From: Candidatus Woesebacteria bacterium
Lineage (GTDB): Bacteria; Patescibacteriota; Microgenomatia; UBA8517
Assembly: GCA_020060565.1 (NCBI GenBank)
Contig: JAGVAE010000001.1
Coordinates: 2,671 to 66,670 of the forward strand
DNA length: 64,000 bases
Direction of reading: 5' to 3'
In this document: piece by piece, positions 9,026 through 29,900 of the stretch
How the letters are laid out: each line of letters starts with the position of its first letter
Numbering within the stretch: position 1 is the first letter of the stretch
Notes under the pieces: model-generated
The model's input: the letters and a program-made list of their open reading frames with translations, nothing else
Database searches by the model: none
What the model was told of the DNA's origin: nothing
Translations under genes and position numbers: made by a program

Positions 9026-9068
9026 CCTCGACTTGACAAAATAACAACGTTTTTGTAAACTGAAGGTA

Positions 9069-10305: not shown

Positions 10306-10433
10306 CTATATTCCTCATGCAAAAAGTTTGCTTCAATAGTTTTCACACTGTATGATCAGAAGCAACTAAAAAGTAAGAAGTAAAAAGTAAAACTGTTTTT
10401 CACTTATCACTTTTCGCTTTTAGCTCATCGTAT

Positions 10434-11525: not shown

Positions 11526-11531
11526 GAAATA

Positions 11532-12746
11532 TTAAATAATTGACCCTCCCCAAATGTAATTATCGAATTTTGGGGACAAGTTTCTACCAATTAGTTGGAT
11601 ACTTTTGACATTTGCAATAGATGCAATCTTCTTTAGATTTGAAAGGTCGTCACTTGTTGGTGTTTCTTTTGCTTCTGCGGCAAGTTTCCCATCTATAATA
11701 AAGTCTATCTCATTACCATTTTTAAGCGAATAATATTGAATTTGATTATTTCTTACCAACTGGTTATAAAGACTGTTCTCAAATTGAGAACCACTATTTA
11801 GATCAGTCAAAATATTCGCGATTCCTGTATCGCAAAAATAAAGTTTTCTGGATTTGACTATCTCGCGGCCGATATTTTTTGTAAAGACTCCGATGGTACT
11901 AATAAGATAGGTTTTTTCAAAAAAAGAAATATAATTTGCAACTGTCGGTCTGGATAACCCTGTAAGTCTTGACATTTTTGAATATTCGATTCTACTACCG
12001 ACCCTGGAGGCTAAAAGTTTTGCCAGATTATATAAATTTCTTTCGTCACTGAAATCAGCCAAGCTTTTTATGTCTATACTTACATAAGAGGAGAAAATAT
12101 CTTTTAAGTTGTCAATTTTTTCTTTCTCATTTTCCAGTAAAACTACTTGGGGGAACCCACCGAAGCGTATATATTCATTATAATAGGATGAGAGTCTACT
12201 ATATTCTAGTTTATCGAAAGTGCCATGTTTCCATTGAGAATCTGTAAAATTAACATTTTTAAAAGTTAAAAATTCACCAAAATCAAGCGGGTATAACTCA
12301 AAGATTTTTTTCCTGCCTGAAAGGGATTCAGAAAAAAGATTTTTTAGATAATATGAACTTGATCCTGTAACAATAAATTTAATTCCATAATGATCGTAAA
12401 GATATTTGATAGCACTTGGTGAATCTGGGGCGAGCTGAATTTCATCTATTGCAACAATCATATTTTCAGGCGATAGATTTTGTGAGATTAAATTGTTTCT
12501 GATCGCTTCATAGTTTTTCTCCTCAAATAACTCTCGGATATCTAGCCGTTGAAAGTCCAAATAAATTGAGTTTTTGTTAGGTAGATCGGACAAGAGCTGT
12601 TTAACTAGTGTGGTCTTTCCTGTTCTTCTCATGCCTGTCAATACCGTTACTTGTGGGGTTTTAGCATGGGAGAGGAGTTCTGGGTATATTTTTCGGGGAT
12701 ATATCATTGCAATTGATAGTTTACAAAAAGTATTACTTTTTGTCAA
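11532..12746 (-). CDS. AAA-family ATPase (AAA_14 + DUF4143 type)
   Basis: Walker A GMRRTGKTTL, Walker B IVAIDEIQ, and a C-terminal region typical of DUF4143 orphan ATPases. The ORF-track start is a TTG; the probable real start is the ATG at about 12708 (MIYPRK). Confidence 0.75.
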   Translation of the reverse strand: MTKSNTFCKLSIAMIYPRKIYPELLSHAKTPQVTVLTGMRRTGKTTLVKQLLSDLPNKNSIYLDFQRLDIRELFEEKNYEAIRNNLISQNLSPENMIVAIDEIQLAPDSPSAIKYLYDHYGIKFIVTGSSSYYLKNLFSESLSGRKKIFELYPLDFGEFLTFKNVNFTDSQWKHGTFDKLEYSRLSSYYNEYIRFGGFPQVVLLENEKEKIDNLKDIFSSYVSIDIKSLADFSDERNLYNLAKLLASRVGSRIEYSKMSRLTGLSRPTVANYISFFEKTYLISTIGVFTKNIGREIVKSRKLYFCDTGIANILTDLNSGSQFENSLYNQLVRNNQIQYYSLKNGNEIDFIIDGKLAAEAKETPTSDDLSNLKKIASIANVKSIQLIGRNLSPKFDNYIWGGSII

Positions 12747-12760: not shown

Positions 12761-12804
12761 ATAAAGGAGGGTCACGCCCAAATCCACTTTTGTATTTGAA
12801 GTAG
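12761..12804 (+). pseudogene. direct repeat copy 2, a duplicated remnant of the M23 peptidase C-terminus (..YKGGSRPNPLLYLK*)
   Basis: Differs from the YKGGTRPNPLLYLK* end of the intact gene at 11525 only in its first 14 nt. It terminates the spurious ORF 12574-12804. Confidence 0.6.
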
Positions 12805-12816
12805 GTATTATTAAAG

Positions 12817-15800
12817 CTAATTAGTTTCTGGAGTGAACTTTTCTGGGGAACCACCATTCGCAATATAGTCTAAAAATTTATATCTTTCGGGGCTGTTTTT
12901 TTCTAGAAATTCTGGAGCAGTCAAATAAAGAGCCATAGAGTCTGCTAAATCTTCCCAGGCTGCTCTCGTTAAATTAACTGATTTATCATAACTTTGTGCA
13001 TAGGGAGTGGGGGGCTTCTCGTTTAGAAGTTGATCATTTCTTCCATTGTAAAAGTAATTTATAAATGATGCTGGTAGGCTTCCGTTCACATATTTTCCAT
13101 TCTTATCAGTTTCATATTTAAGGGTATGAACAAACTCATGCACTAAAGAGGCTAATGGAACATCTTCCTTTTTTAGATATGAATCTAAACCTGGAACTCT
13201 CAAAAGATGACTTTGATAGAGGTAGTTATTATTAAAAGTAATACTAGTCTCAAGAGTTGACCCCTTGTTTGTGAGATCGTTGCCTGTTAAGCCGTAGTAA
13301 CCCTGACCCAAGTCATTTTCTCCGACTTTAATAATTTTGATTTTATTGCTCAAAAGTTGAGAAAAAGGGGCGAGATTGGTTAATGCTTTGGAGTAATTTG
13401 TTTTATCATTGGGACTAAGGCCGTATCCAGAGAGTTCTAGAGTTACGGTTTTATCTGCTTCTTTTTTCTTTGAATATACAACTTCAATTTTACTATCATT
13501 GATTGTTTTAATTTTTGAAGAAACAGTGTTTTTTGAGTTCTCAACAGAGAGGTTATTATTTTTAATCATTTGATTATTGGTAATTGTGTTTACAATTGAT
13601 TCAGCAATTATATCTGCACCATATTTGTTTGGATGAACACCGTCTTTACCAACACTTTTAGAAAGGTCATACCGACTCGCATACGAACTCCCCATAATTA
13701 CAGGTGAATCTGAAGTTGATATCTGTGAAGCTAACTCCGCGAATTTATTATTCAACTTTTCAGCATCCTCTGTATAGGGTAGACCTTTGTAAGAAAATTT
13801 CGGAACAGAAGTAATAACAACTTTTATATTAGGATTAACATTGTCACGAAGGTAATTAATAATATACTGCATATTAGGGATTATTTTGGTATCTATATCA
13901 TTTTTGTTAACCAAATCATTTATTCCAAACTGTAATACGACCAGATTAACATTTTTATCAAATTCTACTTTTTGTGGGTTTTTATCATAAAGCCACTCTT
14001 TAGCTTTTAATGCATTAACAATCGCGGCTGTAGAATATCCTGTATGACCTTCGGTTATTGTTCCTGCGGTAACTGATTTTTGGTTTCCTAAAAACTCTAT
14101 GTCATAGCCTGCTGCTTTAAGCTGTTCATACAGTGAATCAGATAGATAGCCTTGAGTTAGGGAATCTCCCAATATTAATACATTTGTTTTTGAGAAAGTA
14201 GGTTCCTCTTTCTTTGGTAGTTCTGGAACGGCTTCAGAAAATTGTTGTTGTTTTGAAGTCTCAACCGACGCTTCCCCTTTTTGTATTCTCTGGTTAGAAT
14301 CTTTTATCTTTTCATTCTGATCTTTATCAACGGATACAGGAAGTTTATCTGATGGGGCAGGGAAGATGGATTTAATCTGGTCAATTACTCCTTGCCATAG
14401 ATTTACAGAAAAGTCTATTGCTTTTGGAATTTCATTAGCTGTATTTTGTAAAATAGTTCTTCCCAAAATTGTTCCTCCCACTATATTGACAGCTGCCCCT
14501 ACGGCCAATTTACCATTACTTGTACCAAGGAAAGTTTTAAGATTGTCTGAAACCGTCGGTTTGACCTCAATTGGGACAGTTTTGGTATCAGCTTCAGAGA
14601 CAGATGTTTCTAGTGTTTTCGGAAATGTTGCAGATGGCTCGTCTGAAACTAATTTTTCAGGGAAAAGAGCCTTTGCTTCATCTAAGTTTATCTCTCGATA
14701 TGCAAACCGAGCTTTTGGTACACCATCGAGAGGATAGGATTCCAAACCAGGTATATACAAATATGGCTCTGATATTTTTTCACCAAAAGTGTTGGTGTAT
14801 ATTTGTTGTGCTGGTACTCTTATTTCGGTCATTGCATAAGGTCGAACCTCATAAATGTTTTGAATTTTTTCTATGGGAATTAGGTCTCTAACAATTACAT
14901 CTCCCAAAAAATCAATTTCAGGATTTGATGGTTTTTTAATTGATATGATATAAGAGGGTCTTTCAAATGTGGCCATAGCAAAATAACCCTCACCCTCAGC
15001 TGCATAACCTAAGGCGCGTTCGCTGTTTTGACTAAAATATATACTATCAGTATACCCAACACTTTTCATAATTGGTCCAGATTCAAGTATGTTGTTTTGA
15101 AGTATGGATTGCATTCCTTCAAAATTAATTCCCCTAAAGATAAGTTCTTCTCCATCAATTGTCGAAGGAATGTTTGAATCACCGAGAACGTGGCCATACA
15201 CATCACTAACCAGCGGTTTATATCCAGAGTCTGCAAGGAACTGAATTTCTCCATTTTCTACAACAGATAGTGAGCGATCGTAAAAAAACTCGCCGTTTTT
15301 GAGAATGTTGGAATTTGTTTCAGGGGTCAAAACTATCCTTTTTGTTTCATTATTCCATTTGCCGTTCCAATGGGATGCATAACGTTCAAGATGTTCTCCC
15401 ATATCAAAAACATCACCCATCTTTCCGCCCTTGAGATTTTTTATAGGTAAATCATTAATCCAAGTTTTTTCATTGGTCATCTGGGGTGGTGCAACTGCTA
15501 GATAGGGTTCATCTGGAGCTACTAATGTTCCCACCTCTTCGTGTATTGGAACTACCGGGGTAGTGGGATTTTCTGTTCTTAATTTTGGCAGCCATCCTCG
15601 TTTATCTTTAATATTTTCATTCCACCAACCTTTAGTATTGATTACTGCGGGGGATTGGGTAATGTTTTGTGTGGTTTCTGTTAGTTTATTCCAAGTACTG
15701 GTAAAAATGTTTTGATTTTGAAGGGGAACTATGCCATTTGTATTTCTATTGATTGGTTTGCCTGTATTGATGTTAAATTTACCTTTTTCGTCTTTGAATA

Positions 15801-18729
15801 TAGTGACTATTGGAGTATCACGACGAGTGTTTGTATCAGAACTTAATATACTATCATTATAAGTAATTCGTAAATTATCCTCCAAAACAATATTATTTGC
15901 TTTTACCCAAGCATTATTTTCTTTATCGAAGTAGTAAATGGGACTGTCGTTAGTTCTTTGCAAAACATAAGTTCCATCAGTGGTTTGGCCAACAATTAGT
16001 CCTTCAGCTTCTTCTGCTTTCTCAAGAATATTTTTACCATTAACTTTATGTACCTTTTTTAGTGGAACTTTAGGGGTGGTGTCAGTGGCTACCCTTGCGT
16101 TTTCTAGATAATAACTAAATGATGGCACCCCTATTGAATGGTTTCCATTATAAAATATACTTACAGTGTTATCAGCTTGAATTTTACTTCCAGCTTGAAT
16201 TTTTACAGATTGACCTGGAGCGCACGACCTTCCATCAATTATTATTGTTCTTCCTGTTGTATTTTCAACACTTACTCCATCTCTAGATTTGGTGACTTTA
16301 ACCAACTGAGGATCTGACAAAGATGATTCATGTATTCTAAATTGGCTGTCTGGAGAATTTCCCAAACTATATGTTGTTGTATCAGTCCCTATTTTTCCAG
16401 GTATACCTGGTCGGTTGGGTTCAAGGGTGACTGGCACCATTGAATCTGTGGCTTTTGAAGGTTCAAAGGTAAGATCTGAGGACTTTAATTGGATAGGTTG
16501 GGGATTAGTTGGTTCTTGTGAAACCTTAGGCTTTCCAAGATTATCTACAAAACCCACAATCCTTGCCTGTGCATTCTGAGCAGTTTCTTTTGACTTATCC
16601 CAAGCTTGAGCAAGTGGGGAAGGGAAAGTTGCTGGAATCTCTTTAGGTGCAAAAAGCATATCAGATTTATTTGTAATTTTTATGGGTGCATAGGGTACAA
16701 GTTGGCTTTCATCAGGCATGACTGGACGGGGATTTGATGCAGCTGCTGCCAATGGGTCGGATGGGTGTATCTCTGGGATTCCCTTTGATATAGATGGAAT
16801 ATCAACTTCAGATATCTTACGGAGAGGATTTCCTATTGATAATTGTCCTTGTTTATAATCTATAACCCCAAAACCAGCATCAGCAACCACTGCAACAATT
16901 GAACCTGCGCAATCTAAAACTGATCTTCCTTCTTGAGTGCAGGTGGTAATGGCTGTTGGAATATCAACGACTAAGTTTATACCTGATACTCCAGTATTTA
17001 AACTTCGTGCTAAATTAAGTGATTGAACAGTGGAGGCGGTATTGGAAAATGTTTTTATTAAATAGTTGGCTGTTCCTAAATTTGTCCAAGATAAAGCAGC
17101 AAGACCTGTTTGCTTCCAAGCCTCAAGCGAGCCAGGGTTTTCCACTTGAGCCACGGTTGCATCAACGGTCTGTTGAACGGACGATATTGCTCCCAGATGC
17201 ATAAATCCTGTTGCCACAGCACTTCCAACACTTCCCGCAGTAAAAACAGCCGGTGCAGCAAACACACCCCCCAATGCTGCGGCAGTAATCTTAAACTCAT
17301 TTGTTATTTGGGTGTTCCAATTTTTACATTCAGTACTATTTGGATTATTTTTGCAGGCTTCTGTACCTTCCAAATAAACTTGTGAGAGTTGGGGTGTAGT
17401 AAAATTTTGTCCGATTTGGTTTGTATTTCCCGGAAGGGGATTGTAGGCATTACAAACTCCTCCAAGACATATTTTCTGATCGCTCTTTGCAACTTGAGTT
17501 TCTATCAAAGGTGGGGTATTGATTTGGGGTGGTTTTTCCTGACAAATACCATTGGATGCGTATCCTGATTCACAATACGAAGCGTATTGAACACGTGTCC
17601 CGATTGGATATTTAACCATTACACTTCCTTGTTCGTTTGAAGTGATTGAAGCTGTCTGAGCTTTTGGTACTTCTTGTTTTTTGGTTGATGTCTCTCCGAC
17701 GAATTTACCCGTACTTAGGTCTAAATTTCCAGATGTTGTAACGAGATATGTTTTACCCTGAGCGGGGACTATTTGTGTTTGTGTAGATGGAATTGTAGAA
17801 ACTGTTATTCGTGTGGTCTTGTTTGTTGTTGGGTCATAGGTTGTGGTGGTTGTGTTGGTTACTTGATCTCCTCCTCCTGCAACACCCAGACTTCCATAAG
17901 TGGTTGTGACTGTGGTTGTTGGTTTTTTGTTTTCGATATCGTCTATTCTTCGTAAAGCAGCTTCATTTCTGGATTGTTGTACTTTTTGTGTTGCTTCTGC
18001 CTCAGCTGCAGCTTTATCAGCCATTTGTTTCTCATAATTGGCCTTATTTACAGTTGCTAATGATGTCTCTACATATGTATTAGGATCGTTGCCTGTTCCT
18101 GCGATTGGATAATAAATTTCGCCGATACGATAATAACCTGCGATTTCTACTCCAGGAGCGCACCCTCCTCTTGTGAGACAATCATATCCTGCTCCATTAA
18201 GAGGGGCTTCGGTGTTAACAGCATCTTGACCATGATAACCACCATTGATGGTTTTTACCTTGTTAATAGATGTTGTAGTGGAAACAGTTTTGGTATAAGT
18301 TACATTGCCTTTATGGCAGACATTGCCTTCACAAACTTCTTCACATTCTTTTTGTCCGACTCCACCACATTCATTACTACTGGAACTTTTGGCCGCTTCT
18401 GCAGCTGCTTTGTTGGCATTACTATCAATTTCTATAGCTCTTGGGTCTTCATTGGCCAGTTGGGCTCTATAACTTGCCATAGCCTCTGCATCATTTGGAA
18501 TCTGTTTGGGGGCTCCTGTCATGGGATCTGTAACTGTTATTGTTCCAGCTGCTTTTGGTGAAAAAATTTCTTTTATGTTGGGATTAATTGTTACAGATAA
18601 GATGGTTAGGGTAGAGAAGACTAAAAAGCCAATAAGCGTAATACTTAATATGTCAGCTATTCCACGCTCAAAAAACCCAACAGGTTTAGGCATTAAATAT
18701 ACTTTATTAAATCGCGTGAAAAATAGCAA
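12817..18729 (-). CDS. giant (1970 aa) membrane-anchored multidomain surface protein with an SGNH/GDSL hydrolase domain and a C-terminal HExxH motif
   Basis: N-terminal TM (ILSITLIGFLVFSTLTILSVTI), a Cys-rich segment (NECGGVGQKECEEVCEGNVCHKGN) and Thr-rich tracts. SGNH blocks: I ILGDSLT (14161-14175), II GHTGYS, III FGINDL, V DGVHPN (about 13651-13664). LVHEFVH at 13123-13140. The ORF-track start is a TTG. Confidence 0.8.
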   Translation of the reverse strand: MLFFTRFNKVYLMPKPVGFFERGIADILSITLIGFLVFSTLTILSVTINPNIKEIFSPKAAGTITVTDPMTGAPKQIPNDAEAMASYRAQLANEDPRAIEIDSNANKAAAEAAKSSSSNECGGVGQKECEEVCEGNVCHKGNVTYTKTVSTTTSINKVKTINGGYHGQDAVNTEAPLNGAGYDCLTRGGCAPGVEIAGYYRIGEIYYPIAGTGNDPNTYVETSLATVNKANYEKQMADKAAAEAEATQKVQQSRNEAALRRIDDIENKKPTTTVTTTYGSLGVAGGGDQVTNTTTTTYDPTTNKTTRITVSTIPSTQTQIVPAQGKTYLVTTSGNLDLSTGKFVGETSTKKQEVPKAQTASITSNEQGSVMVKYPIGTRVQYASYCESGYASNGICQEKPPQINTPPLIETQVAKSDQKICLGGVCNAYNPLPGNTNQIGQNFTTPQLSQVYLEGTEACKNNPNSTECKNWNTQITNEFKITAAALGGVFAAPAVFTAGSVGSAVATGFMHLGAISSVQQTVDATVAQVENPGSLEAWKQTGLAALSWTNLGTANYLIKTFSNTASTVQSLNLARSLNTGVSGINLVVDIPTAITTCTQEGRSVLDCAGSIVAVVADAGFGVIDYKQGQLSIGNPLRKISEVDIPSISKGIPEIHPSDPLAAAASNPRPVMPDESQLVPYAPIKITNKSDMLFAPKEIPATFPSPLAQAWDKSKETAQNAQARIVGFVDNLGKPKVSQEPTNPQPIQLKSSDLTFEPSKATDSMVPVTLEPNRPGIPGKIGTDTTTYSLGNSPDSQFRIHESSLSDPQLVKVTKSRDGVSVENTTGRTIIIDGRSCAPGQSVKIQAGSKIQADNTVSIFYNGNHSIGVPSFSYYLENARVATDTTPKVPLKKVHKVNGKNILEKAEEAEGLIVGQTTDGTYVLQRTNDSPIYYFDKENNAWVKANNIVLEDNLRITYNDSILSSDTNTRRDTPIVTIFKDEKGKFNINTGKPINRNTNGIVPLQNQNIFTSTWNKLTETTQNITQSPAVINTKGWWNENIKDKRGWLPKLRTENPTTPVVPIHEEVGTLVAPDEPYLAVAPPQMTNEKTWINDLPIKNLKGGKMGDVFDMGEHLERYASHWNGKWNNETKRIVLTPETNSNILKNGEFFYDRSLSVVENGEIQFLADSGYKPLVSDVYGHVLGDSNIPSTIDGEELIFRGINFEGMQSILQNNILESGPIMKSVGYTDSIYFSQNSERALGYAAEGEGYFAMATFERPSYIISIKKPSNPEIDFLGDVIVRDLIPIEKIQNIYEVRPYAMTEIRVPAQQIYTNTFGEKISEPYLYIPGLESYPLDGVPKARFAYREINLDEAKALFPEKLVSDEPSATFPKTLETSVSEADTKTVPIEVKPTVSDNLKTFLGTSNGKLAVGAAVNIVGGTILGRTILQNTANEIPKAIDFSVNLWQGVIDQIKSIFPAPSDKLPVSVDKDQNEKIKDSNQRIQKGEASVETSKQQQFSEAVPELPKKEEPTFSKTNVLILGDSLTQGYLSDSLYEQLKAAGYDIEFLGNQKSVTAGTITEGHTGYSTAAIVNALKAKEWLYDKNPQKVEFDKNVNLVVLQFGINDLVNKNDIDTKIIPNMQYIINYLRDNVNPNIKVVITSVPKFSYKGLPYTEDAEKLNNKFAELASQISTSDSPVIMGSSYASRYDLSKSVGKDGVHPNKYGADIIAESIVNTITNNQMIKNNNLSVENSKNTVSSKIKTINDSKIEVVYSKKKEADKTVTLELSGYGLSPNDKTNYSKALTNLAPFSQLLSNKIKIIKVGENDLGQGYYGLTGNDLTNKGSTLETSITFNNNYLYQSHLLRVPGLDSYLKKEDVPLASLVHEFVHTLKYETDKNGKYVNGSLPASFINYFYNGRNDQLLNEKPPTPYAQSYDKSVNLTRAAWEDLADSMALYLTAPEFLEKNSPERYKFLDYIANGGSPEKFTPETN

Positions 18730-19532
18730 TGGATATTAGAGGACTATTGACACAAGCTAATAAAAAAATGATACTTAAATATATGGAACCTGCCGTTGAG
18801 TCTAGATTTACTGCAAATTATTCTTCTGATACTAAGCCCACGATGTCTAATGGAGTTAAAAAGATTATAACATATGGTTTAATAGCCATTGTTTTATTGG
18901 TTATTTGGACGTATGTGAATTCTCCCTTAGTGGTCACGGTTACAGGATCGGGGGAGGTTAGTGTTCCTGCTACAAATGCCACAGTTAGTTTTTCCTTGTC
19001 TGCTAATGATGGGTCAATTGGTGCTGCAGTTTCTGCAGTTCAAGCCAAAGCTGAGCTAATGAGAGCCTATTTGCAGGAAAATGGGGTTTCTGAAGGGGAC
19101 ATTGCAGTTTCTCAGGTTACTGCTGTTCCTGCTGCCCTTATTACAGAAGGAGTAGGGGGATATCAGGCAACAGTTTCAATGGCTGCTAAGACATCTCATG
19201 TAACAGGAGTAAGTAATTTAGTTTCTGATCTTTATACCAATGGGGCATTGGTAGTTGCCCAGCCTATTTTATCTGTTGAGAATGAAGATAAATTGGACAA
19301 AGAAGTGTTTGCAACAGCCATGAAAGATGCAAATGCTCAGGCAGCAAAGATAGGGAAAACAAATTGGAAGTTTATTAGAAAGATTATTTCAATTGACCAG
19401 GCAACATCTGGTACTACATCAACTTCAACTACTAAGGCAGATACACTAACTACAGCAAATGATTCAGTGGCTGCAACAAATGGAGTATTTAAAATTGTTA
19501 AAGCAGTCTCCGTTAGCTACAAGATGTGGTGA
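18729..19532 (+). CDS. SIMPL/DUF541-like membrane-anchored protein
   Basis: N-terminal TM, then a domain with VTGSGEVSVPATNATVSFS and a C-terminal pattern resembling the SIMPL (26-kDa periplasmic immunogenic protein) family. It is divergent from the giant gene, and the two start positions abut. Confidence 0.6.
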   Translation: MDIRGLLTQANKKMILKYMEPAVESRFTANYSSDTKPTMSNGVKKIITYGLIAIVLLVIWTYVNSPLVVTVTGSGEVSVPATNATVSFSLSANDGSIGAAVSAVQAKAELMRAYLQENGVSEGDIAVSQVTAVPAALITEGVGGYQATVSMAAKTSHVTGVSNLVSDLYTNGALVVAQPILSVENEDKLDKEVFATAMKDANAQAAKIGKTNWKFIRKIISIDQATSGTTSTSTTKADTLTTANDSVAATNGVFKIVKAVSVSYKMW

Positions 19533-19540
19533 GATAGATT

Positions 19541-19777
19541 TTGTGGTACAATTTAGGCATGACACCCCAGTTTATTCGTAAATATTTTTGGGATATTAAG
19601 ATTGAAAAGGCTGATCCAAAAAAACATCCAGAGTATTTTATTAGTAGGATTTTGGAGTTTGGAGATAGAAAGTCTTTTGGCTGGCTGAAGTCTTTTTTTG
19701 GGATGGAGAAGATTCGTAAAGTTGTAAAATCTAGAAAATTGACACCTAAATCTCAAAATTTCTGGCAAAATGTTTGA
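19541..19777 (+). CDS. small hypothetical protein (78 aa), putative partner of the downstream nucleotidyltransferase
   Basis: Overlaps the next ORF by 8 nt, a TA-like organisation; I recognise no wHTH. Confidence 0.4.
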   Translation: MWYNLGMTPQFIRKYFWDIKIEKADPKKHPEYFISRILEFGDRKSFGWLKSFFGMEKIRKVVKSRKLTPKSQNFWQNV

Positions 19778-20378
19778 AAATACACTTTCTTCCAATAGTC
19801 TTAAGTTTATTAAAGAAATCAAATCTGATAGTTTGCCAAATGATTCCTATCTAGGAGGGGGGACGGCAATTGCTCTTCAAATTGGCCACAGAAAGTCTCT
19901 GGACTTGGATTTTTTTACTCAAACTCAATTTAATGAGACTCAATGGCAACAAAAGTTGGAAGAAGACATTGGGTTTGACCTGATTCAAAAAGATTGGCAG
20001 ACATTAGTTGGAAGCGTGCAAGATATCAAGTTTTCTCTTTTTTATTATAAACATGCCTTGATTGATAAAACTAAGGATTATTACAATATTAAATTAGCCT
20101 CACTTGAAGATTTATCTGCAATGAAATTGGACACTGTCATTTCCAGGGGAACAAGGCGGGATTTAATAGATATCTATTTCCTGGCACAAAAATTTTCCAT
20201 TCCTGGGATGTTTGAATTCTATGATAGAAAGTTTGGAAACTTTAAAGACCGTGAGATTATGATCAAAAAAGCTCTTATTTATTTTGAAGACGCAGAGAAG
20301 GATGAGACCCCTGATATGCTTATTCCTTTCGATTGGAATGAGTTAAAAACATTCTTCAAAAAGGAAATTGAACTTTAA
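19770..20378 (+). CDS. short AbiEii-like nucleotidyltransferase (DUF1814-type)
   Basis: YLGGGTAIALQIGHRKSLDLDFF, the same NTase motif as the other AbiEii copies. At 202 aa it is short for the family. Confidence 0.6.
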   Translation: MFENTLSSNSLKFIKEIKSDSLPNDSYLGGGTAIALQIGHRKSLDLDFFTQTQFNETQWQQKLEEDIGFDLIQKDWQTLVGSVQDIKFSLFYYKHALIDKTKDYYNIKLASLEDLSAMKLDTVISRGTRRDLIDIYFLAQKFSIPGMFEFYDRKFGNFKDREIMIKKALIYFEDAEKDETPDMLIPFDWNELKTFFKKEIEL

Positions 20379-20394
20379 ATAGGTTGTAAGTAAG

Positions 20395-20465
20395 GGCTTG
20401 TAGGTAAGTGGTATACCGTATCATTCGCATTGATAAATCGGCGGTTCGATTCCGCCCAAGTCCAC
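20395..20465 (+). tRNA. tRNA-like element with a CGC (Ala-type) anticodon and a defective acceptor stem; probable tRNA pseudogene or att-site remnant
   Basis: By hand it folds as GGGCTTG-TA-GGTA/AGTGGTA/TACC-G-TATCA/TTCGCAT/TGATA-AATC-GGCGG/TTCGATT/CCGCC-CAATCCA-C. The D, anticodon and T arms are canonical (T-loop TTCGATT), but acceptor pairs 1:72 (G:A) and 4:69 (C:T) are mismatched. Confidence 0.4.
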
Positions 20466-21196
20466 TATTGTAATTTTGACTTCAGTTTTTGGATGAGTAG
20501 ATTCTTCAAATTTTTTGCAATTTCTCTTTGTGATCTGGGTAAAAATTGTGTTAAATCCATATCTAGTTTGGCTTGAGGATAGGATTCAATCTTTTTTAAT
20601 AAATCTGAGATATTAACATCCTTTTTAAGAGGAATTCCTTTTTCCAGTAGAAACCAGACATCAAAAGAATCCCTTCCTTTATTTCGATCCAGAAGAGCCT
20701 CAATTTTTTCTGCAAGAATTTCCTTATTTGAAAAATGTGATATTAAAGGAAACATGGGGATTGGGAATTTGGTTATTAGGGGAGAAACTACAATCTCTGG
20801 TGTATTTTTGATTTGGGTAAAATCCAAACGAATAGTTAAGGGGAACTTAAATCCAACTGGCTGATATTTTATGCGGTAACGGATACCGTTTTTGCCAGAA
20901 TACAAAAGAAGTATTTGCATTTTTGGCATCTCTTTTTGTATGGCTTGTTCCAACTTTTCCAATATTTGTTTAATCTGTTCTTTGTTGTAGGTGGTAGAGA
21001 AATCTAGATCTTCTGAGAATCGTGAGGAACCCAACAGCAATCTAATAGCTGTTCCACCCTTGAAATAAATTTTATTTGCTTTTGCATCTTGGTAAAGATA
21101 ACTCAAGAATAAAAGCTGAAAATGTTCGCGTATGATAGTGAAAGTATCTATTTGATAGTCTTTTGCTAGAGCATCTATTTGTTCTTTAGTAATCAT
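20465..21196 (-). CDS. AbiEii/AbiGii-family nucleotidyltransferase toxin
   Basis: YFKGGTAIRLLLGSSRFSEDLDFS motif; 243 aa. Its stop codon abuts the 3' end of the tRNA-like element. Confidence 0.75.
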   Translation of the reverse strand: MITKEQIDALAKDYQIDTFTIIREHFQLLFLSYLYQDAKANKIYFKGGTAIRLLLGSSRFSEDLDFSTTYNKEQIKQILEKLEQAIQKEMPKMQILLLYSGKNGIRYRIKYQPVGFKFPLTIRLDFTQIKNTPEIVVSPLITKFPIPMFPLISHFSNKEILAEKIEALLDRNKGRDSFDVWFLLEKGIPLKKDVNISDLLKKIESYPQAKLDMDLTQFLPRSQREIAKNLKNLLIQKLKSKLQ

Positions 21197-21783
21197 TTGA
21201 TGATTTTCTTAATAATCTTAGACATCTTTTTATTATCAAATCTTCTAGTGTAAATAACAAGCTTTTGCCTATCAATTCCAGATAATTCCATTTCATCAAA
21301 ATCTAAATTCCGCAATCCCTTTAGTCCTAAATAAATATAATCCAGAAGTGCCTTTTCGGGGTCGGCAATTAAAAAGTCATCTTTTTTTTCGTACCCCCAA
21401 TATAACTTGTTTGCTATTTGTGAATATTGGAACTCCTTTTGTTGAATATTGATATTTTTACTTTTTTTGACAGATATGGATGTTATTTGGTAGGGGAAAC
21501 CAGTAATTATTCCATAAAATGATAGTGCAGATTCGAGAGAAATGTAGGAGGGTTGGAGGGTAAAATTAGCTATTAGAAAGTCATCTGGCGGATTAAGTAA
21601 AAAACTGTATTTACCATTTGTTAATTTCTGGATTAGACCTTTTTTTTCCAGTCTTTGAATCCTTTTGTATAGGTTCAAACTATTTGAAATATCAAACAAT
21701 CTTCCAAAATCTGTTAATGAAAATAGAGAAATTTGTTTTTCTTGCAAAACTTTAATAATATCGGTTGCAGAATACGTTCCCAT
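21193..21783 (-). CDS. AbiEi-type antitoxin (winged-helix)
   Basis: N-terminal wHTH (LYKRIQRLEKKGLIQKLTNGKYSF). Its stop overlaps the toxin start by 4 nt (ATGA). It resembles the 9069-9644 protein (SYISLE...L motif). Confidence 0.7.
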   Translation of the reverse strand: MGTYSATDIIKVLQEKQISLFSLTDFGRLFDISNSLNLYKRIQRLEKKGLIQKLTNGKYSFLLNPPDDFLIANFTLQPSYISLESALSFYGIITGFPYQITSISVKKSKNINIQQKEFQYSQIANKLYWGYEKKDDFLIADPEKALLDYIYLGLKGLRNLDFDEMELSGIDRQKLVIYTRRFDNKKMSKIIKKIIK

Positions 21784-21833
21784 AATTAAGACAATTATAT
21801 GCTAAAATTTGGAACGTGTCAAGCCAAAACTAT

Positions 21834-23873
21834 TTATTGTGTTGCAGCTGGGGGAGTAGCTTCTTCGGGAAGCTCAATTGGAGGTTTTACATTTGATGGC
21901 TCAATCGCTTGAGGGGCTTGTAAGTTGTCAGTTTCCTCACTTGTTTTTGCAGGCTTGTTTTTATTTAGTTCATCCAGAGTGCTTTTTGCAAGTTTATAAT
22001 CTTCTGAATCATTGGGAACCAAACTTATAACATTATTAATTGATGTAATTGCATTGTCATAATCTTTCTTGGCTTGATAGGCGATTGCTAAATTGTAATG
22101 GGCATTGGCAAGATTACTTTTGGCAAGAACTGCAAGTTTAAATGTATCAATTGCATCATCATATCTACCCAGAGCGTAATAAACGCCGCCTAGAGAGATT
22201 CTAAGGGATGGATTTGTTGGATCAAGCGCAACGGCTTGATTGTATGTTTGAATAGCAAATTGATCAGCTCCTGTTGCAAAAGGCATAATGCTTCTATAAA
22301 TTTGCGCCAGTATTTCCCAATTTCCAGATCTTGCTGGGTTTAATGTAACCGTAGCTTTTCCTTCATTGATAGCTTCTTGAACAAGTTGGGTAATTGTTTC
22401 TTTATCAGTATCTGTGACCTCAGTTTTTGAGGCCAGAGATTGAGCTAATGCCATGTCAATCTGGGCTAAGGAAGCATGATATCTGTCCACGGTTGGATTT
22501 TGTTTAACAGCAGCCACAATTGCATCGTATGTAGTTTTAGCATCATTTTTAGCTAAAGCCTCAAGAGCTTTTGTGTAATTGGCCTCAGCTCTGATCCAGC
22601 CGCTTGCAACAAAGAAGAAAACCCCTAAAGCTACTGCAAAAGGCAAACAAATAAGAACAACTGCCGATTTTGATGACGACTCCGCTAAGAGATTTACATT
22701 TTTATTTTCAGATTCAGAAATTATGGCAAGCAAAACAAACAGAATTGTTATTAGAGCAGGGGCAATGGGGAAAATTGCAAAAAGAACCAAGGTGATAATA
22801 GCTGGTAGAAATTTGATATCAAATTTCCTAGAAACAAACTTATAAAGAACAATGAAAAGAACTGCAAAAGCCAATATTCCTGCAAATCCAAGCTCGGAAA
22901 TGGCTGTCATGTAATAATTAGTGGCTGTAGTGAATCTAACTTGCCAAAGATCCGAAGCATTGTATGATACTGGTCTAAATCTATTGAATGCCGTCAAATA
23001 ATTTCCAGGTCCTACCCCCCAAATAGGGCTTACTTTAAGTGTATCAACCGCGATTTGCCAAGATGTATTCAAATCTGGAAGCTTAGGACTTTGGGGCTGT
23101 CCTGGAAGTATGTTTTTACCAAGAATAATCATTCCCAAAATTATTACTCCAGCAGAAACTCCTGCAAAAAGTTTATATACATTATCTTTTTGTTTAAAAA
23201 TAAATAGTGCTGCAATGGTTAATGCAGCTAACATATAGACAACTGCAGGTAAACTTCCACCCATGGGGTTAAAGGTTACGTCTTTTACAAAAGCGGGGAG
23301 TTGGGGAATTTTTGTTAACACTCCAATTTGTGCAAAAAGAACGACAACAGAAAGAAGAACTCCAGAAATTACCACCGCAAAAGATATTCCTTCTTTATCC
23401 TCTGCTTTTAATTGGTTAATTAAGAAATAGAGAAGTGCCGATGCTCCTACAATGGTTGCGGCTCCCGGGAAAAAGAAAGCTTCCATTTTATTAGGAGTTG
23501 CCAAAAACCCTGATGCTATATAAGAAGTTGCCACTAATAGTATAGGTATATCAAATTTTCCAGCCTTAAAACTTACAGACCCTTTTATAACAGATTCAAC
23601 CATCCAAAGGATTATGGCAAGACCAACAACTACTGATAGGAGAATAGTTTTAGGTAGGGTATACGTAGCCGAAGCAAAAGAGAAAACAAAAACAGGATAC
23701 AAAACAACTAAGGTGTAAAGAAGATATTTTTTGATTGTTTCTATGGCTTTAATCATATCATTCCAAGCTAAGTCAGTATTAAATATTTTACCTCTATTGT
23801 CAATAGCGCTTTGCTGCAAAGTATAACTAAATATATATAAATATATACTTTGATATATTAAAGTATCATTCAA
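21834..23873 (-). CDS. O-antigen ligase-like (Wzy_C/PglL-type) polytopic membrane protein with C-terminal TPR repeats
   Basis: At least 10 predicted TM helices. SPIWGVGPGNYLTAF, the loop typical of O-antigen ligase / O-oligosaccharyltransferase families. A C-terminal ~230 aa with TPR-like repeats (YNQAVALDPTNPSLRISLGGVYYALGRYDDAIDTFK..). Confidence 0.7.
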   Translation of the reverse strand: MNDTLIYQSIYLYIFSYTLQQSAIDNRGKIFNTDLAWNDMIKAIETIKKYLLYTLVVLYPVFVFSFASATYTLPKTILLSVVVGLAIILWMVESVIKGSVSFKAGKFDIPILLVATSYIASGFLATPNKMEAFFFPGAATIVGASALLYFLINQLKAEDKEGISFAVVISGVLLSVVVLFAQIGVLTKIPQLPAFVKDVTFNPMGGSLPAVVYMLAALTIAALFIFKQKDNVYKLFAGVSAGVIILGMIILGKNILPGQPQSPKLPDLNTSWQIAVDTLKVSPIWGVGPGNYLTAFNRFRPVSYNASDLWQVRFTTATNYYMTAISELGFAGILAFAVLFIVLYKFVSRKFDIKFLPAIITLVLFAIFPIAPALITILFVLLAIISESENKNVNLLAESSSKSAVVLICLPFAVALGVFFFVASGWIRAEANYTKALEALAKNDAKTTYDAIVAAVKQNPTVDRYHASLAQIDMALAQSLASKTEVTDTDKETITQLVQEAINEGKATVTLNPARSGNWEILAQIYRSIMPFATGADQFAIQTYNQAVALDPTNPSLRISLGGVYYALGRYDDAIDTFKLAVLAKSNLANAHYNLAIAYQAKKDYDNAITSINNVISLVPNDSEDYKLAKSTLDELNKNKPAKTSEETDNLQAPQAIEPSNVKPPIELPEEATPPAATQ

Positions 23874-23918: not shown

Positions 23919-26900
23919 TTACTGTACTTGTACTATCCACCAATTGAACTTTACATCAATATCGATAGGATTCGTAAAACCGACTACAAATTGTCCATTC
24001 TCTTTACTTTTTACATACAAAACATTGTTAAGAGTTGGGGAGGTAGGGGTTACATAGACCAAAGTTAGATCTGTAACTTTGGGATTTTTGATGATTATCT
24101 CGCTTGTTTCTGCAGGAACAGTTGCCTGTCCAATCATTGAATTTGTAGTAATAACTCCATCTATAATAGTGCCTGAGACTGTCGCGTCGGAAGCGGCAAC
24201 AATTAGTTCGGGGGTGGTAACAGAATTAAGTGTTGCTGATCCTGTTGCATTGATTATTTTGGCATTAAGCTCTAAAGTTGTAATTTTTCCTGCAACATAC
24301 AAGTTTCCAGCCATTCTCATGTTTCCTTGGGTATCAATTGAAATAAGCCCTCCCATAATTTCAACTGGTGCCATGGCGAGAGATTGAATTTGGAGTGGGG
24401 CAGAAAGACTATTAATAGTATTGCCGTTAAGTCCAATTACCAAGTCGCTTCCTAGGGTTAAGGAATCTGCAATGGAAACTGAGCTCATTGCAGCATTACC
24501 TGTTACAAATAAATCATTTGTAATAAGTTCTGCTATATTTGCACTTCCACTTGCAGTTAAATTGGCTCCTGCAGTTGCAGTAAAAAGAAGAGATTGATCT
24601 GCTGACACTTGGGCAAGTAAAGCTTCAATTTCATCAATGTTTTGTGATCTGACGACTCCACTAAATGAGGCATTACCCATATTGTCAATTGAGGCTACTT
24701 CTGACCCTTCTGAGTTTTGAATTGCAAATTTACCTGATGGAGTAGCTTCCGACCCAATTCTTACTGTTACATCTGTTTCATCAGCAAGAGGGGAGATAAG
24801 TGGGGTTTGAATCCTCTGGGCTATTAATTTATCAGTATCAACTACACCTGCTTTGATACTGGCAATGAGCGCCTGGCTGAAGATTCCAATGTTATTTATT
24901 GTTTCCCCTGTAGCATCTTTAATTTCGTATGCAATTCCGGCCGCATTTACTTTTGCATTTAATAAGTAGGCATTTATATCAGAAAGGATTGGAGTTAAAG
25001 AACTTCCGTTTCCTATAAAAATCATTACATTGTCTTTTTGGTATGTTGGATCCCAAGGTTCGAGAGCGGTTCCAATTGATTTTTCACCCAATACTGCTTT
25101 TTTAGCACGTCCTGGGGTAGAGGAGGAGGTGATTGGATCTCCTGTTTTAATTGCTGCCGAGTCTGTTGCAACTTTGACAGGAACTCGTCCAACAAGAGCC
25201 AGAAGTCTTCTATCTTCAGCTTCAATTCCCAAGGTTTGACCTGCTTTGGTTGAAATTACACCAATAAGTCCAGGGTCACGAATTCCATTTGACTTTCTAA
25301 GAATTGGTACTCCGTAATCGTCCAAGTTGCCACTAACCGAGACTACATCTCCTGAAACAATATCTTGATTGTCTACTCCATAATACTCAGCCAAGTCAGC
25401 TCCGTATACAACTGCGTCAAGCCTAAGTTCCTGATTTTGGCCAGTGTAGTTATATAACCTGACATTATTTGCATCTGTTTGAGTTATTTTGTAGCTGTTG
25501 TTATAACTAAACTGAACATTGTTTACCTGGGGCTGGAAACTTGTATTGGTGGTAGTAAATATTGCTCTATACTGCAAGTAATTGTTGGGGGTTGAGACAA
25601 TTGGTGAACCACTACTTACAGTCATAGCTTTTTCAGCTTTGAAATTATCAAAGTGAATTGTATTCCATGGGTTATTCAAGTTTGTTACTCTAAGTTTGGT
25701 AACACCGTCCTTAGAAGTTGAAACTATATCCGACAAATCCCAATATACTTTTTGCCAAGTACTTGTGGCGTCAATTGTTACAGTTTCTTCTTGTTCTGTT
25801 CCTGCAGCTTCTCCAAAACCAAGCTTTACAGTATTTCCAGATGAGGTTGCATATACCCAAGCAGTTAAGTAGTCATATCCAGAGATGTCAGTTGCACCAA
25901 TAGTTGCTTCTGCGTAACCTCCTCCTTGGGCGGTGTTAACAAATTGAGTTGTGTTTCCCGCAGTTCCTTCATCTTCATCTTCAAATTGATCTACATTCCT
26001 TGTTACTGTGCCATCAGCAACTGTTGCACTAGATCCTGTCCAATCTGTGTGGGTGTTGGCATCTTGAAGGGAAAGGTAATTGGTTGAGGCTATCGCAGGT
26101 TTCCAAGCTTCCCATGTTCCATCAGTTGGATTGGTTGAATTTCCAGTCCTTGTTTGGAATTCTACTTTGCCCCAAGCAGAAGGGGTAGCTTCCCATCTAA
26201 GATCACTTAATGAAACTGCGTTTGGTGTACTAATTACTCCCGAATGATACAAACCATATGGATAGTATGGTTGAACTGTATAGGCTGCAGTGGGGGAGTT
26301 GGTTGAACCTGTATAAGAGGTTGTGTAGTAAATAGCTGTACGTCCTTTGCCTCCCGCACCACCCGCAACAGGTAAACTAGCTCCTCCCGCACCACCCGAT
26401 CCATTTGTTGCAGATACTAAGTTTGTACCTAAAGTAACCGTACCAGCAGATAATTTAACAGATCCTCCAGCTCCACCTCCACCTCCAGCACTCCAATTTG
26501 AACCTGCACTACCGTTTGCACCATTTGACGAGACGGTTCCGCTTACTGTAACACTTGCTGCTGAGATTGTAACGATTCCTCCTCCCGCACCTCCAAGTCC
26601 ACGGGTATCGGAAGAATACTGTCCTGCTGCACCTCCACCCGACCCGAACATAAGATCGGCAAGTGCTGCATCTCCATAAGTTCCACCACCACCCCCACCT
26701 CCAGCTCCTGATGCACCTCCATTACCTGAGGTATTGGTTCCTCCATTTGATCCATTATCTCCTCCATAACCATAAGTTCCGTAACCACCACCTCCACCTG
26801 CGCGACCTCCAGAGTTTTGATCTCCTAATCCCCCTCCTCCTGATCCTCCAAGGGCGGCAGAACCTGTGCCTCCTGCAGGATCTCCACCACCTCCACCACC

Positions 26901-29900
26901 ACAGTATCCATTTGCACCTGAAGCATTGTGTCCACCTCCACCTCCAGCAGCCCCTGCGGATCCATTAACTCCTGATGTTCCTCCAGCTCCGCCTAGTCCG
27001 CAGAAAGCTTCTCCTCCGTTACCACCACCATAACCTCCTGCACCACCAGTTGTTGCACCTCTATAACCCATAGCGTTGGCATGAATATTACCACTTATAG
27101 AAACGGCTCCAGTTGCTCTAAAGAAAATCACTCCACCTTTAGCTCCGTCAAAAGCTGTTGGATAGAAATTTTGAGATGCATTAACGGTTACAGTTGTATA
27201 GTTGGGGACTCTTTGAAGCATCACTCTTTGTGTTCCTGCGGTGGTACCAAGATTGGAATCATCAGTTGCATTATCACCATAGAATTTTGTTTTGGATTTG
27301 GTGAAGTTAACAGTATTGGAGGAAACCGATGAAACCCTAAGTGTTTCGTAATTTCCTACATTTACATATGCACTAGTTGCTCCTTGAAGATTGATAAGCA
27401 AAACTTCATCTCCTACTGTTAAACAACCTGCAGATGGGGTAGTGGAAAGGGTTGCTGCGGTTGAGGTTAGGGAACTTACTGAATAATTTACAGCATCTCC
27501 GCCGTCAGCACAGGAGCGGGCACTAATTAAGCTTGTGGCGTTTATACTAGTGTTTCCTGATACAGTAATGGCGCCATCTGCTCCTGTTCCTGTATCAACT
27601 GATGGGGCAAGTTCAATATCAGTTAGTCTGGTTTGGGTTCTAACTTTTCCTGATGCTGAAGCATTATCAAATTCATTCTGAAGTGACTGCTTCATTGTTA
27701 CTGATTTATCTGTTATTTTTTCCCACAGGCTTGTAATAGTATTTTTGACCCAACCGGTGAGACTTATATCATTTGTGTTTTGATTGTGGGCTACTTCAAC
27801 ATAACCAAGATTGGCAATGTTTGCTGCAGTTGTTGCGTATTTAGTCATATCCATTGCAATCCTATGGAAAGCACTATCTCCAGTTCGAAGATAAAGATGG
27901 TCAACATCTGTGTCGTAATAAATAGTTCCTTCTGCAGTATTTGTAGTTGAGGCCATACCTGCTAGAGTGATTGCTCCATCGTTGTGAACTGTAAATTTAG
28001 ATACACCCGAAGCGGAAGCTGTAAATATATCCCCACCTTTTTGTTGATTAACCATTAGAGCTGCTTGACCAACATTTGCGGTGTTATCTACCAACCAGCT
28101 ACTAGCCCCTAATGTGTTTGATGTTGTTGTTGGTGCAGAAGAGAAAACTATAGTTGCAGTTCCTGCTGAGTTGGCGATTATTCCACTATCAAGATATAAG
28201 TTTCCATCAAGTTCCAAATCACTACTAATTAGAAGATCGCTTCCATCTGTTATTCCTCCTGAATGTCCTGTGGTATTGGTTCCAAATCTATTGTATGCGG
28301 TTGCTGAAGAGTTGTTTACCTGTAGGTTTGAGGTAAAAAGACCTGTTGTGGCTGTCATAGTTCCCGAACAAGCAAGATTGCCGTTAGATCCATCTACTGT
28401 ACAGCCAGTGTCGGTAGATCCACCACCGAACAGTATAGATGAAGCACCACTTCCAGTTGGCCCTAAGTTTATTGTAGTTGCTGCTCCTCCAACATTAAGA
28501 GATGTAGTTGTGGTATTGAAAAGTTCAGCTGTCGTAGCCCCAGAATTAAGATCTCCAGCAATTGTAATATTTGATCCATTGGCAGTTAAAGAGGTGATAC
28601 CTCGAGAATTAATAACTACATTGCCTGTTGTTGCACTCCCTAGGGTAAGATTGGCCATATTTGTTGTTGAAAGATTTCCGTTTCCATTTATGTAGGTAGC
28701 AACATTGGCTGTCGTTCCTGCAATACTTGCAGTTGGTGTTCCTGAGGTAACTCCAGTGAATGCAAACTTGGCAGAAGCTGTTGCAATTCCTCCGATTAAG
28801 ACATCAACGGTTTGGCTATTGGGGTATATTGTTCCTGTTGCATCATCTAGTGTCCAGGTTCCACCTCCTCCTGCTCCATTGTCAACCCAACTTAACTGTC
28901 CTGCAGCATCACTAGAAAGAACATATCCTGAAGAAACTGCATCAGCATCAGGCCATGTGTAGGTTATCCCATGCAGCTGAGTTGTCCCTATGTTTACTAA
29001 GTTTCCAGAAGCATCGATTCTTTGTGTCCCTGCAGTTGCACCAGTGTAAATTCCGTTAACTGCATTAACTGTTCCAGGGGCTCTAAAGTCTGAAGGAATT
29101 GAAAGAGTAATATCTCCTGTTCCTGCACTTGCTGTAATTTGATTTGCAGTTCCAGCCAAAGAACTTACGTAGTTCCCAGTTGTGTGAGTTCCAAGAACTA
29201 TCTTTCCCCAAGATGGAGCAGCTCCAACACCTCCTGAGATTAGAGCATTTCCAACTGCAATATCAGCAAGTTGTGAGAGTGTGTTTGTACTGCTGGCATA
29301 TATCAAATCTCCTGTTGTATATGAATTAAGGCCAGTTCCTCCTTGATCAGTTCCAAGTACTCCGGTTGAGGTCAATGTTTTGTTTGCATCGGTAAATACT
29401 CCTTTTGATGCAGTCAGCCCTGTATCTGTTATGGATCCTGCAGAGAATGGGGAAGAGGAGATTACATTTCCAGTTGTTGCACCTCCAAGTGTAATATCTT
29501 TCATATCAGTATTTGCCAAGTTTCCAGTGGAGGTTAAATATGTTCCTGAAATACTAGCAGTTGGTGTTCCTGATGTAACTCCAGTGAAGGCAAATTTGGC
29601 AGATGTTGTTGCATCTGATCCTATTAGAACATCCATACTGTTGTTCTTTGGAAATAGTGCTCCTTCTGCTGCAGTCCAGTAAATTGAAGAAGCAACAGCA
29701 TCTGCAGGATCCACCCAAGCTAGGGTTGAAGATGCTCCTGTTCCTGTTGATTGAAGTACATAATTTGCAGTGGCACTCCCAGGCCAGGTGTATGTAACTC
29801 CGTTTATCTGAGTAGTACCAATATTGGTTAGATTACCTGATGCATCAATCCTTTGTGTTCCTGCTGTTGCACCAGTGTAAATTCCGTTAACTGCATTAAC

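Follow-up and report, generated by a model that had tools for sequence, protein, structure and literature searches.

How did a tRNA-like element come to lie between two toxin genes, and is it a relic or a gene that still works? The question is raised by a 71-nucleotide element in a 64-kb stretch of DNA from Candidatus Woesebacteria (Patescibacteria, the Candidate Phyla Radiation or CPR). This stretch, called the window below, made up all our genome data for the organism. From left to right, the locus comprises a DUF6922 gene, a short nucleotidyltransferase toxin gene and the tRNA-like element, all on the plus strand, followed by an AbiEii and an AbiEi gene on the minus strand, the two gene pairs converging on the element. 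A preliminary description of the locus had seen in it a damaged tRNA, left behind by an imperfectly reconstituted attachment (att) site. We consider it highly probable that the locus consists of a functional tRNA-Ala(CGC) gene between two unrelated DUF1814 (AbiEii/MenT) toxin-antitoxin (TA) operons, that the DUF6922 module is the older of the two and the AbiE cassette is specific to one lineage, and that the adjacency of toxins and tRNA is non-functional.

The element on which this reading turns is the following:

20394-20464, plus strand: tRNA-Ala(CGC), 'allele A', 71 nucleotides (ARAGORN; Rfam RF00005)

ARAGORN placed the tRNA-Ala(CGC) at 20394-20465. The alignment to Rfam RF00005 runs over 20394-20464 and covers model positions 1-71 of 71 with a score of 65.0 bits, compared to a gathering score of 29; it is the highest score among the three tRNAs of the window. 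All four stems are intact, and no non-canonical pair was flagged by the Rfam alignment. The acceptor stem, GGGCUUG/CAAGUCC, comprises seven pairs, including G3:U70 (G20396 with T20461), and the discriminator is A73 (A20464). A G3:U70 pair is the alanine identity element read by alanyl-tRNA synthetase. CCA is not encoded by the gene, the bases after A73 being C-T-A. The G1:A72 and C4:T69 mismatches, on which the idea of a damaged acceptor stem had been built, proved to be a register error. From its score and its cloverleaf, the 71-nucleotide element is predicted to be an intact, functional tRNA-Ala gene. A tRNA pseudogene or att-site remnant was considered and rejected, since there is no truncation and no disrupted stem; relics of this kind were found only in two relatives, L107 and L025 (see below). 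The preliminary description had itself named a high-scoring functional tRNA call as evidence against a remnant, and both ARAGORN and Rfam returned one. The locus corrects a false pseudogene call in this respect, and its significance is otherwise small.

The tRNA gene is closely packed between its neighbours. The gap from the stop codon of the short toxin to G1 of the tRNA is 15 nucleotides and, as had been noted before, the stop codon of AbiEii (TAG, 20467-20465 on the minus strand) directly abuts the discriminator base at 20464. No promoter belonging to the tRNA itself was recognisable in the 15-nucleotide gap, and only weak promoter-like sites are present upstream. The tRNA sequence was matched neither exactly nor under relaxed settings in genome, metagenome and viral collections, among which the source genome is not included.

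Distribution of the two modules among relatives

The four open reading frames (ORFs) of the preliminary description and their family assignments were confirmed. With their flanking genes and regulatory signals they are arranged as follows:

18729-19532, plus strand: SIMPL/DUF541 gene (PF04402, 2.3e-16), conserved left neighbour of the DUF6922 module
19541-19777, plus strand: small DUF6922 ORF (PF21956, 1.2e-14), 78 residues from TTG, presumed antitoxin
19770-20378, plus strand: short AbiEii/DUF1814 (MenT-fold) nucleotidyltransferase (PF08843, 1.6e-13), 202 residues, presumed toxin
20465-21833, no strand: lineage-specific insert of 1.37 kb with the AbiE operon and its promoter, from the tRNA 3' end to the stop of the wzy-TPR gene
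20465-21196, minus strand: predicted AbiEii nucleotidyltransferase toxin (PF08843, 2e-28; PADLOC AbiEii, 4.6e-27, full length), 243 residues
21193-21783, minus strand: predicted AbiEi antitoxin and autoregulator (PADLOC AbiEi, 3.1e-39), 196 residues
21774-21780 and 21811-21817: inverted repeat ACGTTCC/GGAACGT, 7 bp, bracketing the promoter, candidate AbiEi operator
21794-21822, minus strand: predicted sigma-70 promoter TTGACA-17-TATAAT, 12/12 consensus, 10 nucleotides upstream of the AbiEi ATG
21834-23873, minus strand: wzy-TPR gene, encoding a membrane protein with Wzy_C (O-antigen-ligase-like) and TPR domains (Pfam), conserved right boundary of the slot

The host is placed in Woesebacteria/Patescibacteria because orthologues of the wzy-TPR gene, with 43-62% identity, occur in metagenome-assembled genomes of these groups. 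For the comparison with relatives we used five syntenic lineages, with seven syntenic contigs, which were found through short-toxin homologues of 95, 93, 87 and 80% identity; six of these contigs extend past the stop codon of the short toxin. The slot between tRNA and wzy-TPR gene, and the same region in a more distant relative, are occupied differently in each case:

L025 and L026 (two separate samples): after SIMPL-DUF6922-toxin-tRNA-Ala(CGC), 10 nucleotides, then the convergent wzy-TPR stop
L107: after SIMPL-DUF6922-toxin-tRNA-Ala(CGC), about 133 nucleotides with a tRNA relic, then wzy-TPR
L111: after SIMPL-DUF6922-toxin-tRNA-Ala(CGC), five genes in 5.8 kb, then wzy-TPR
L146: SIMPL-DUF6922-toxin, with the contig ending at tRNA position 30
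L005, more distant: rho-M23-tRNA-Ala(CGC)-wzy-TPR, with the tRNA orientation reversed and no TA genes at all

The DUF6922/short-toxin module was present in 7/7 syntenic contigs, between the SIMPL gene and the tRNA, and the tRNA follows the short-toxin stop by 1-58 nucleotides in all six contigs that extend beyond it. The SIMPL gene is syntenic in L024-L026, L107, L111 and L146. To judge from these contigs, the DUF6922 module is the older resident, inherited in the clade together with the adjacent tRNA. The AbiE pair, in contrast, is absent from every syntenic relative reaching the slot (L025, L026, L107 and L111), as well as from the distant L005. Homology detected by blastn to L025, L026 and L107 ends at 20376-20465 and resumes exactly at 21834. 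The GC content across the TA modules is 0.29-0.35, and that of the AbiE insert 0.29-0.34, compared to about 0.36-0.42 in the flanks. Because the pair is absent in relatives and the best non-self homologue of its toxin (AbiEii_2, 20465-21196) has 67% identity, against 80-95% for the short toxin, the parsimonious reading is that the pair would have been gained in the lineage of the window strain only. In IMG/VR, the only relatives have at most 45% identity, and at most 30% over any long stretch; with matches of this level only, a viral origin was rejected.

The idea of a TA islet set beside a tRNA 3' end therefore survives in part: accessory DNA lying directly 3' of the tRNA and absent from relatives is a fair description of the window-only AbiE pair, but not of the DUF6922 module, which all syntenic contigs share. 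The comparison of gene order that had been proposed as a check was divided along the same line, with an AbiE pair missing from relatives and a DUF6922-tRNA order common to them. The arrival of the window tRNA and the AbiE pair as one unit was not supported, since L107 and L146 share the tRNA allele and the slot of L107 is without AbiE.

The toxins, their partners and the tRNA

The DUF6922 ORF likely starts at ATG 19559, which gives a protein of 72 residues, and it overlaps the start of the short-toxin gene by 8 nucleotides. In 30 homologues of the short toxin, residues G30 G31, R41-S43-D45-L46-D47, K119, R126 and R130 D131 D134 are invariant, forming the pattern GG / RxSxDLD / K..R..RD..D. An AlphaFold2 (AF2) model of the short toxin has a predicted local distance difference test (pLDDT) score of 95. 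With this model, Foldseek retrieved Helicobacter pylori JHP933 (4o8s, 9.9e-6; 4ok0), MenT1 (8an5_B, 4.7e-5; 8an4) and MenT4 (6y56, 1.4e-4), and a PDB search with the toxin sequence gave nothing useful. The AF2 model of the DUF6922 protein is all-alpha (pLDDT 88.6); in the PDB it has no sequence match and no fold match better than E = 1.6. The DUF6922 family counts 746 cluster representatives, and no mention of it was found in the searchable literature.

DUF6922 genes lie immediately upstream of the toxin gene in L024-L026, L107-L111, L138-L142, L145 and L146, which represent at least five genomic contexts; in L143 and L144, the stretch of about 300 nucleotides upstream of the short-toxin homologue is without a called gene. 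Because it is so tightly linked to the toxin gene, the DUF6922 protein is most likely the antitoxin of the short toxin. This unstudied small-protein family, coupled to short MenT-like toxins, would make a promising candidate for an as yet undescribed class of antitoxins. Non-syntenic contexts of the pair include type-IV-secretion-like genes, MreB-WecG and TA islands with MNT/HEPN pairs, and suggest that the pair travels on conjugative or defence islands. Separately, we observed two copies of the pair on one contig (L142:2750-3618 and 6323-6618), and in other CPR bacteria (L142, L145 and L108-L110) the pair stands beside MNT/HEPN-type pairs or PrgI/TraC/TraG-like genes.

The closest characterised system is MenAT1 of Mycobacterium tuberculosis (PMC10435456), in which a DUF1814-fold toxin of about 200 residues is likewise accompanied by an upstream partner of about 70 residues, and the predicted fold of the short toxin matches those of MenT1 and MenT4. 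The two systems differ in that the toxin identity is about 14%, the best fold matches are the two JHP933 structures, and DUF6922 has neither sequence nor fold similarity to MenA1 or any other PDB entry, which makes it a different partner family.

In AbiEii_2, the motifs found across 30 homologues are GGTA / RFSEDLDF / K164..R171..R175 D176..D179. Residues G47 G48, R59-S61-D63-L64-D65, K164, R171, D176 and D179 are invariant, and R175 is present in at least 90% of these homologues. The AbiEi and AbiEii genes overlap by 4 nucleotides (ATGA). Their promoter is the only one with a 12/12 consensus within 18600-22000 and, from its predicted position, the AbiE transcript is probably near-leaderless. 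The pair resembles the AbiE abortive-infection TA systems of Lactococcus, Streptococcus agalactiae and Serratia in its overlapping, antitoxin-then-toxin gene order, in a toxin with intact nucleotidyltransferase motifs that matches PF08843 and full-length PADLOC AbiEii, and in a partner that matches AbiEi models. The strong predicted promoter bracketed by an inverted repeat would fit the autoregulation expected of AbiEi. The pair differs from these systems in its CPR host, in an AbiEi that lacks a Pfam match and scores below the NCBIfam equivalog cut-off (TAA_AbiEi, 2.4e-11, 43.7 bits for a cut-off of 150 bits), and in its position abutting a tRNA, which is not a family trait.

MenT3 and MenT1 modify tRNA acceptor ends (PMC7450476, PMC10435456). 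In S. agalactiae, AbiEii transfers nucleotides to tRNA with a specificity for pyrimidines and is induced by AbiEi to phosphorylate itself (bioRxiv 10.64898/2026.01.19.700257). By analogy, AbiEi of the window would repress its own promoter through the candidate operator ACGTTCC/GGAACGT and would neutralise AbiEii by inducing auto-phosphorylation of the toxin, as in the 2026 preprint; unbound AbiEii would extend tRNA 3' ends with pyrimidines, bringing translation to a halt. Similarly, the short toxin, when released from its partner, may extend the 3' ends of tRNAs by further nucleotides and halt translation, with the DUF6922 protein acting to neutralise it.

Neither toxin keeps company with tRNAs at other loci. 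At 80 metagenomic loci of AbiEii_2 homologues (369 kb, with five tRNAs overall), no tRNA was found at the toxin end (0/80), and none was found near the DUF6922/short-toxin pair at 11 non-syntenic loci (0/11). A family-wide association of AbiE with tRNAs was rejected on the former counts. Adjacency of tRNA and toxin appears, from these comparisons of sequence, to be a property of this locus and not of the modules, and would reflect where accessory DNA accumulates, not a functional partnership. As a side observation, four of the five tRNAs in the metagenomic loci (three tRNA-Ser and one tRNA-Leu, in L047, L061, L095 and L101) are located about 700-1000 nucleotides upstream of the toxin, approximately where the AbiEi gene begins; a rough expectation suggests that this is not significant.

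Probable entry of the AbiE cassette and turnover of the tRNA

The contents of the spacer between tRNA and wzy-TPR gene mark it as a probable strain-variable hot spot in this clade. The five-gene block of L111 encodes secreted or membrane proteins, contains no element genes and has no homologues in the window or in the other relatives. The biology of the locus is ordinary, that of a tRNA-adjacent variable slot with a TA cassette; the gathering of TA cassettes next to a tRNA, in a slot that varies between strains, is a familiar pattern, documented here in a poorly studied CPR lineage.

The tRNA gene also varies. Allele A of the window is identical to the tRNA of L107 (L107:3164-3234) at 71/71 positions, with flanks that are 78% identical, and its first 30 nucleotides match L146:1697-1726. 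That contig L146 breaks off within the tRNA is what one would expect at a point where strains diverge in the assembly graph. Allele B, found in L025 (L025:3829-3899), is identical to the window tRNA at 57/75 positions, with flanks that are 87.6% identical, and resembles the tRNAs of L111 (L111:9611-9681) and L005. Alleles A and B are thus distributed incongruently with flank similarity. Their acceptor strands are GGGCUUG in allele A and GGGCUGU or GGGCCGU in the others, the alleles differing at pairs 6:67 and 7:66. All these tRNAs pass Rfam with 58-65 bits.

L107 carries, in addition to its intact allele A, the pieces of an older tRNA-Ala(CGC). The upstream piece is a tRNA 5' half (L107:3117-3151; GGGCTGTTAGCTTATCCGGTAGAGCACCGCATTCG), which breaks off in the anticodon and aligns to positions 1-34 at 28/35; the score of 28 is higher than all 2000 null scores. 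The downstream piece is a decayed tRNA 3' end (L107:3335-3358; ..GGTTCGACTCTGCTACAGTCCA), which matches positions 50-71 at 18/22 and lies 10 nucleotides before the wzy stop, where L025 has its tRNA 3' end. The acceptor strands of the two pieces are complementary, and the pieces flank the intact allele A. L025 (3789-3806) keeps the first 18 nucleotides of the 5' fragment of L107. The arrangement indicates that the DNA entering L107 supplied a complete replacement tRNA and did not restore the resident one. With its whole-gene allele replacement and split relics, the tRNA-Ala(CGC) locus of Woesebacteria offers a tractable example of a tRNA hot spot in genomes seemingly without the usual integrases.

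In the window, we searched for signatures of integration around the AbiE insert. The direct repeat of the tRNA 3' segment that the preliminary description had proposed to look for was not found within 3 mismatches anywhere in the 64 kb. No tRNA-like sequence was detected at the right junction (21740-21860) in a low-threshold Rfam scan, and tRNA alignments at the window junctions scored 15 and 9-10, within the null distribution. No catalytic integrase was present among the genes tested around the locus, and the insert holds the two AbiE genes only. With neither an integrase nor an att repeat in the window, the tRNA-targeted, site-specific integration that had been put forward is not demonstrable, and homologous exchange by way of the conserved flanks is no less likely.

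Two candidate repeats were discarded. A distal att candidate at 12775-12799 (23/27, the best local match in the window) lies in the duplicated tail of an M23 gene and was attributed to chance, since 10.7% of random 71-nucleotide segments match equally well or better. A 43-nucleotide imperfect repeat flanking AbiE (20465-20507 and 21830-21866, empirical p about 0.01) was rejected as well. Its score comes mostly from toxin codons 231-234, and Leu230, which flanks them, and Leu234 are invariant in 30 homologues; because the score rests on conserved toxin codons, the repeat is genuine toxin coding sequence and does not derive from the wzy tail. Elsewhere in the window, a gene at 32906-33421 (minus strand, 171 residues) encodes phage-integrase N-terminal SAM-like domains only, without a catalytic domain; it lies upstream of the gene for a giant protein of 2993 residues and is syntenic in L003.

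The locus can be compared to tRNA-gene islands and tDNA hot spots. It resembles them in the strain-specific DNA immediately 3' of the tRNA, in the varying cargo and in the tRNA fragments of relatives. It differs from them in that the window lacks both an integrase and a direct repeat of the tRNA 3' end, that the insert is only 1.37 kb long, and that the insert of L107 brings in a whole new tRNA and leaves the resident one unrestored.

How the cassette entered the slot can be explained in several ways. The cassette and the tRNA allele might have been exchanged by homologous recombination between co-existing strains, through the short-toxin gene and the wzy-TPR flanks and with no site-specific machinery, an account that we find plausible, if somewhat short of probable. 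Homology breaks off just where the conserved flanking genes end, the distribution of alleles A and B does not follow flank similarity, and both alleles occur in samples of one study (SRR22388156 versus SRR22388165 and SRR22388168); the window moreover contains competence genes (ComEA-like, ComEC-like) and yielded no att repeat or integrase. Such an exchange leaves the first entry of the cassette into the slot and the split tRNA relic of L107 unexplained, and no donor with the same cassette was found. Alternatively, the cassette may be the eroded rest of a larger element, inserted by a tyrosine integrase at the 3' end of tRNA-Ala(CGC), the integrase and att site being later deleted and the addictive TA genes kept. 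tRNA genes are well-known island hot spots (PMC4891358), the insert begins about 1-15 nucleotides from the tRNA 3' end, and slot contents vary in every relative; in L107, the resident tRNA is broken in the anticodon loop, a classical crossover position, and its 3' end is displaced beyond the insert. This origin nevertheless seems rather unlikely to us. No catalytic integrase was found among the genes tested, the sole integrase-like gene (32906-33421) being N-terminal only and syntenic in L003, no tRNA 3'-end repeat is present and the best candidate repeats are due to chance. The incoming DNA of L107 brings a whole tRNA, which is not the classical completion of a resident, and the secreted or membrane proteins of L111 are accompanied by no element genes. 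It could also be that the AbiE pair is an ancestral occupant of this position which the sampled relatives lost independently of one another; TA loci are frequently lost, and the lineages compared are only five. This would require at least 3-4 separate deletions, all of them precise and some of them in the outgroups L111 and L005, and the closest AbiEii_2 homologue has 67% identity, against 80-95% for the vertically inherited neighbour, so that we judge an ancestral pair to be improbable.

A functional meaning of the adjacency is less probable still. The tRNA could be a substrate, a decoy or a regulatory partner of one or both toxins, for instance through co-transcription with the DUF6922/toxin operon, and DUF1814 toxins do act on tRNA 3' ends (PMC7450476, PMC10435456). 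The tRNA is found 1-58 nucleotides behind the short-toxin stop in six syntenic contigs, with no obvious promoter of its own, and its alleles differ in acceptor-stem pairs 6:67 and 7:66. Neither toxin family, however, lies beside tRNAs elsewhere (0/80 and 0/11 loci), characterised relatives favour tRNAs of other kinds (Ser or class II), and tight packing and co-transcription of tRNAs with their neighbours are unremarkable in compact genomes. Equally doubtful is an evolutionary coupling of the tRNA-Ala(CGC) gene with tRNA-modifying toxins, in which the turnover of alleles, with a tRNA gene replaced at least twice by highly divergent alleles, would result from selection on the tRNA as substrate or decoy. 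If this were true, incoming DNA would bring along its own whole tRNA, compatible with the toxin, and break up the resident copy; neutral behaviour of a hot spot is the alternative. Hardly credible at all is a decayed tRNA produced by imperfect att reconstitution, with both TA modules arriving together by tRNA-targeted integration. Both modules do flank tRNA-Ala(CGC) and converge on it, and L107 and L025 retain relics of such a kind at the orthologous locus, but the window tRNA is full length, has the top score in the window and a perfect acceptor stem, and there is no tRNA fragment at either window junction. The plus-strand module is present in all syntenic relatives and the minus-strand pair in the window only, a difference in distribution from which it follows that they did not arrive together.

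We retain as the preferred reading a functional tRNA between an older DUF6922 module and a lineage-specific AbiE cassette, while several points weigh against it. The tRNA may be co-transcribed with the upstream toxin operon, which could bring some regulatory coupling. Toxicity, neutralisation and tRNA modification are extrapolated from characterised relatives, and the preference for gain over loss of the AbiE pair follows from parsimony across five syntenic lineages and from the fact that close homologues are missing. The window yielded neither an integrase nor a transposase nor a flanking repeat that could account for the insertion, and a distant integrase or a second tRNA-Ala(CGC) may be located beyond the visible 64 kb.

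The third AbiE pair and neighbouring insertions

A further AbiE pair, reported in the preliminary description and confirmed by PADLOC, is located upstream of the locus:

9069-10305, plus strand: third AbiEi/AbiEii pair (PADLOC AbiEi, 2.4e-57; AbiEii, 2e-70), between rho and a LysM/M23 peptidase gene

An expansion of the AbiE family had been read into this pair. Because the three toxins of the window share only 22-27% identity with one another, this expansion consists of three separate acquisitions and is not the result of duplication within the genome. In L005, rho and M23 are adjacent and 66 nucleotides apart, and a motif of this spacer aligns to window 10326-10358, downstream of the third pair. 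Since the rho-M23 spacer of L005 is only 66 nucleotides, the third pair (9026-10325) is also an insertion relative to L005.

Downstream of the M23 gene, a gene for an AAA_14 + DUF4143 ATPase of 404 residues (11532-12746, minus strand) has on either side a copy of a direct repeat of about 56 nucleotides (11489-11545 and 12763-12820, about 86% identical), the repeated sequence being the 3' tail of the LysM/M23 peptidase gene. The orphan copy of this tail still encodes ..YKGGSRPNPLLYLK up to its stop, and in L005 the M23 gene and the tRNA follow one another with no gene in between. The AAA_14/DUF4143 gene is a clean insertion with a duplicated M23 gene end. On the other side of the locus, the ORF of the 2993-residue protein (23919-32900) contains a segment at 26400-27200 in which GC content rises to 0.50-0.56 and GC skew reaches -0.43, compared to a GC content of about 0.38 elsewhere.

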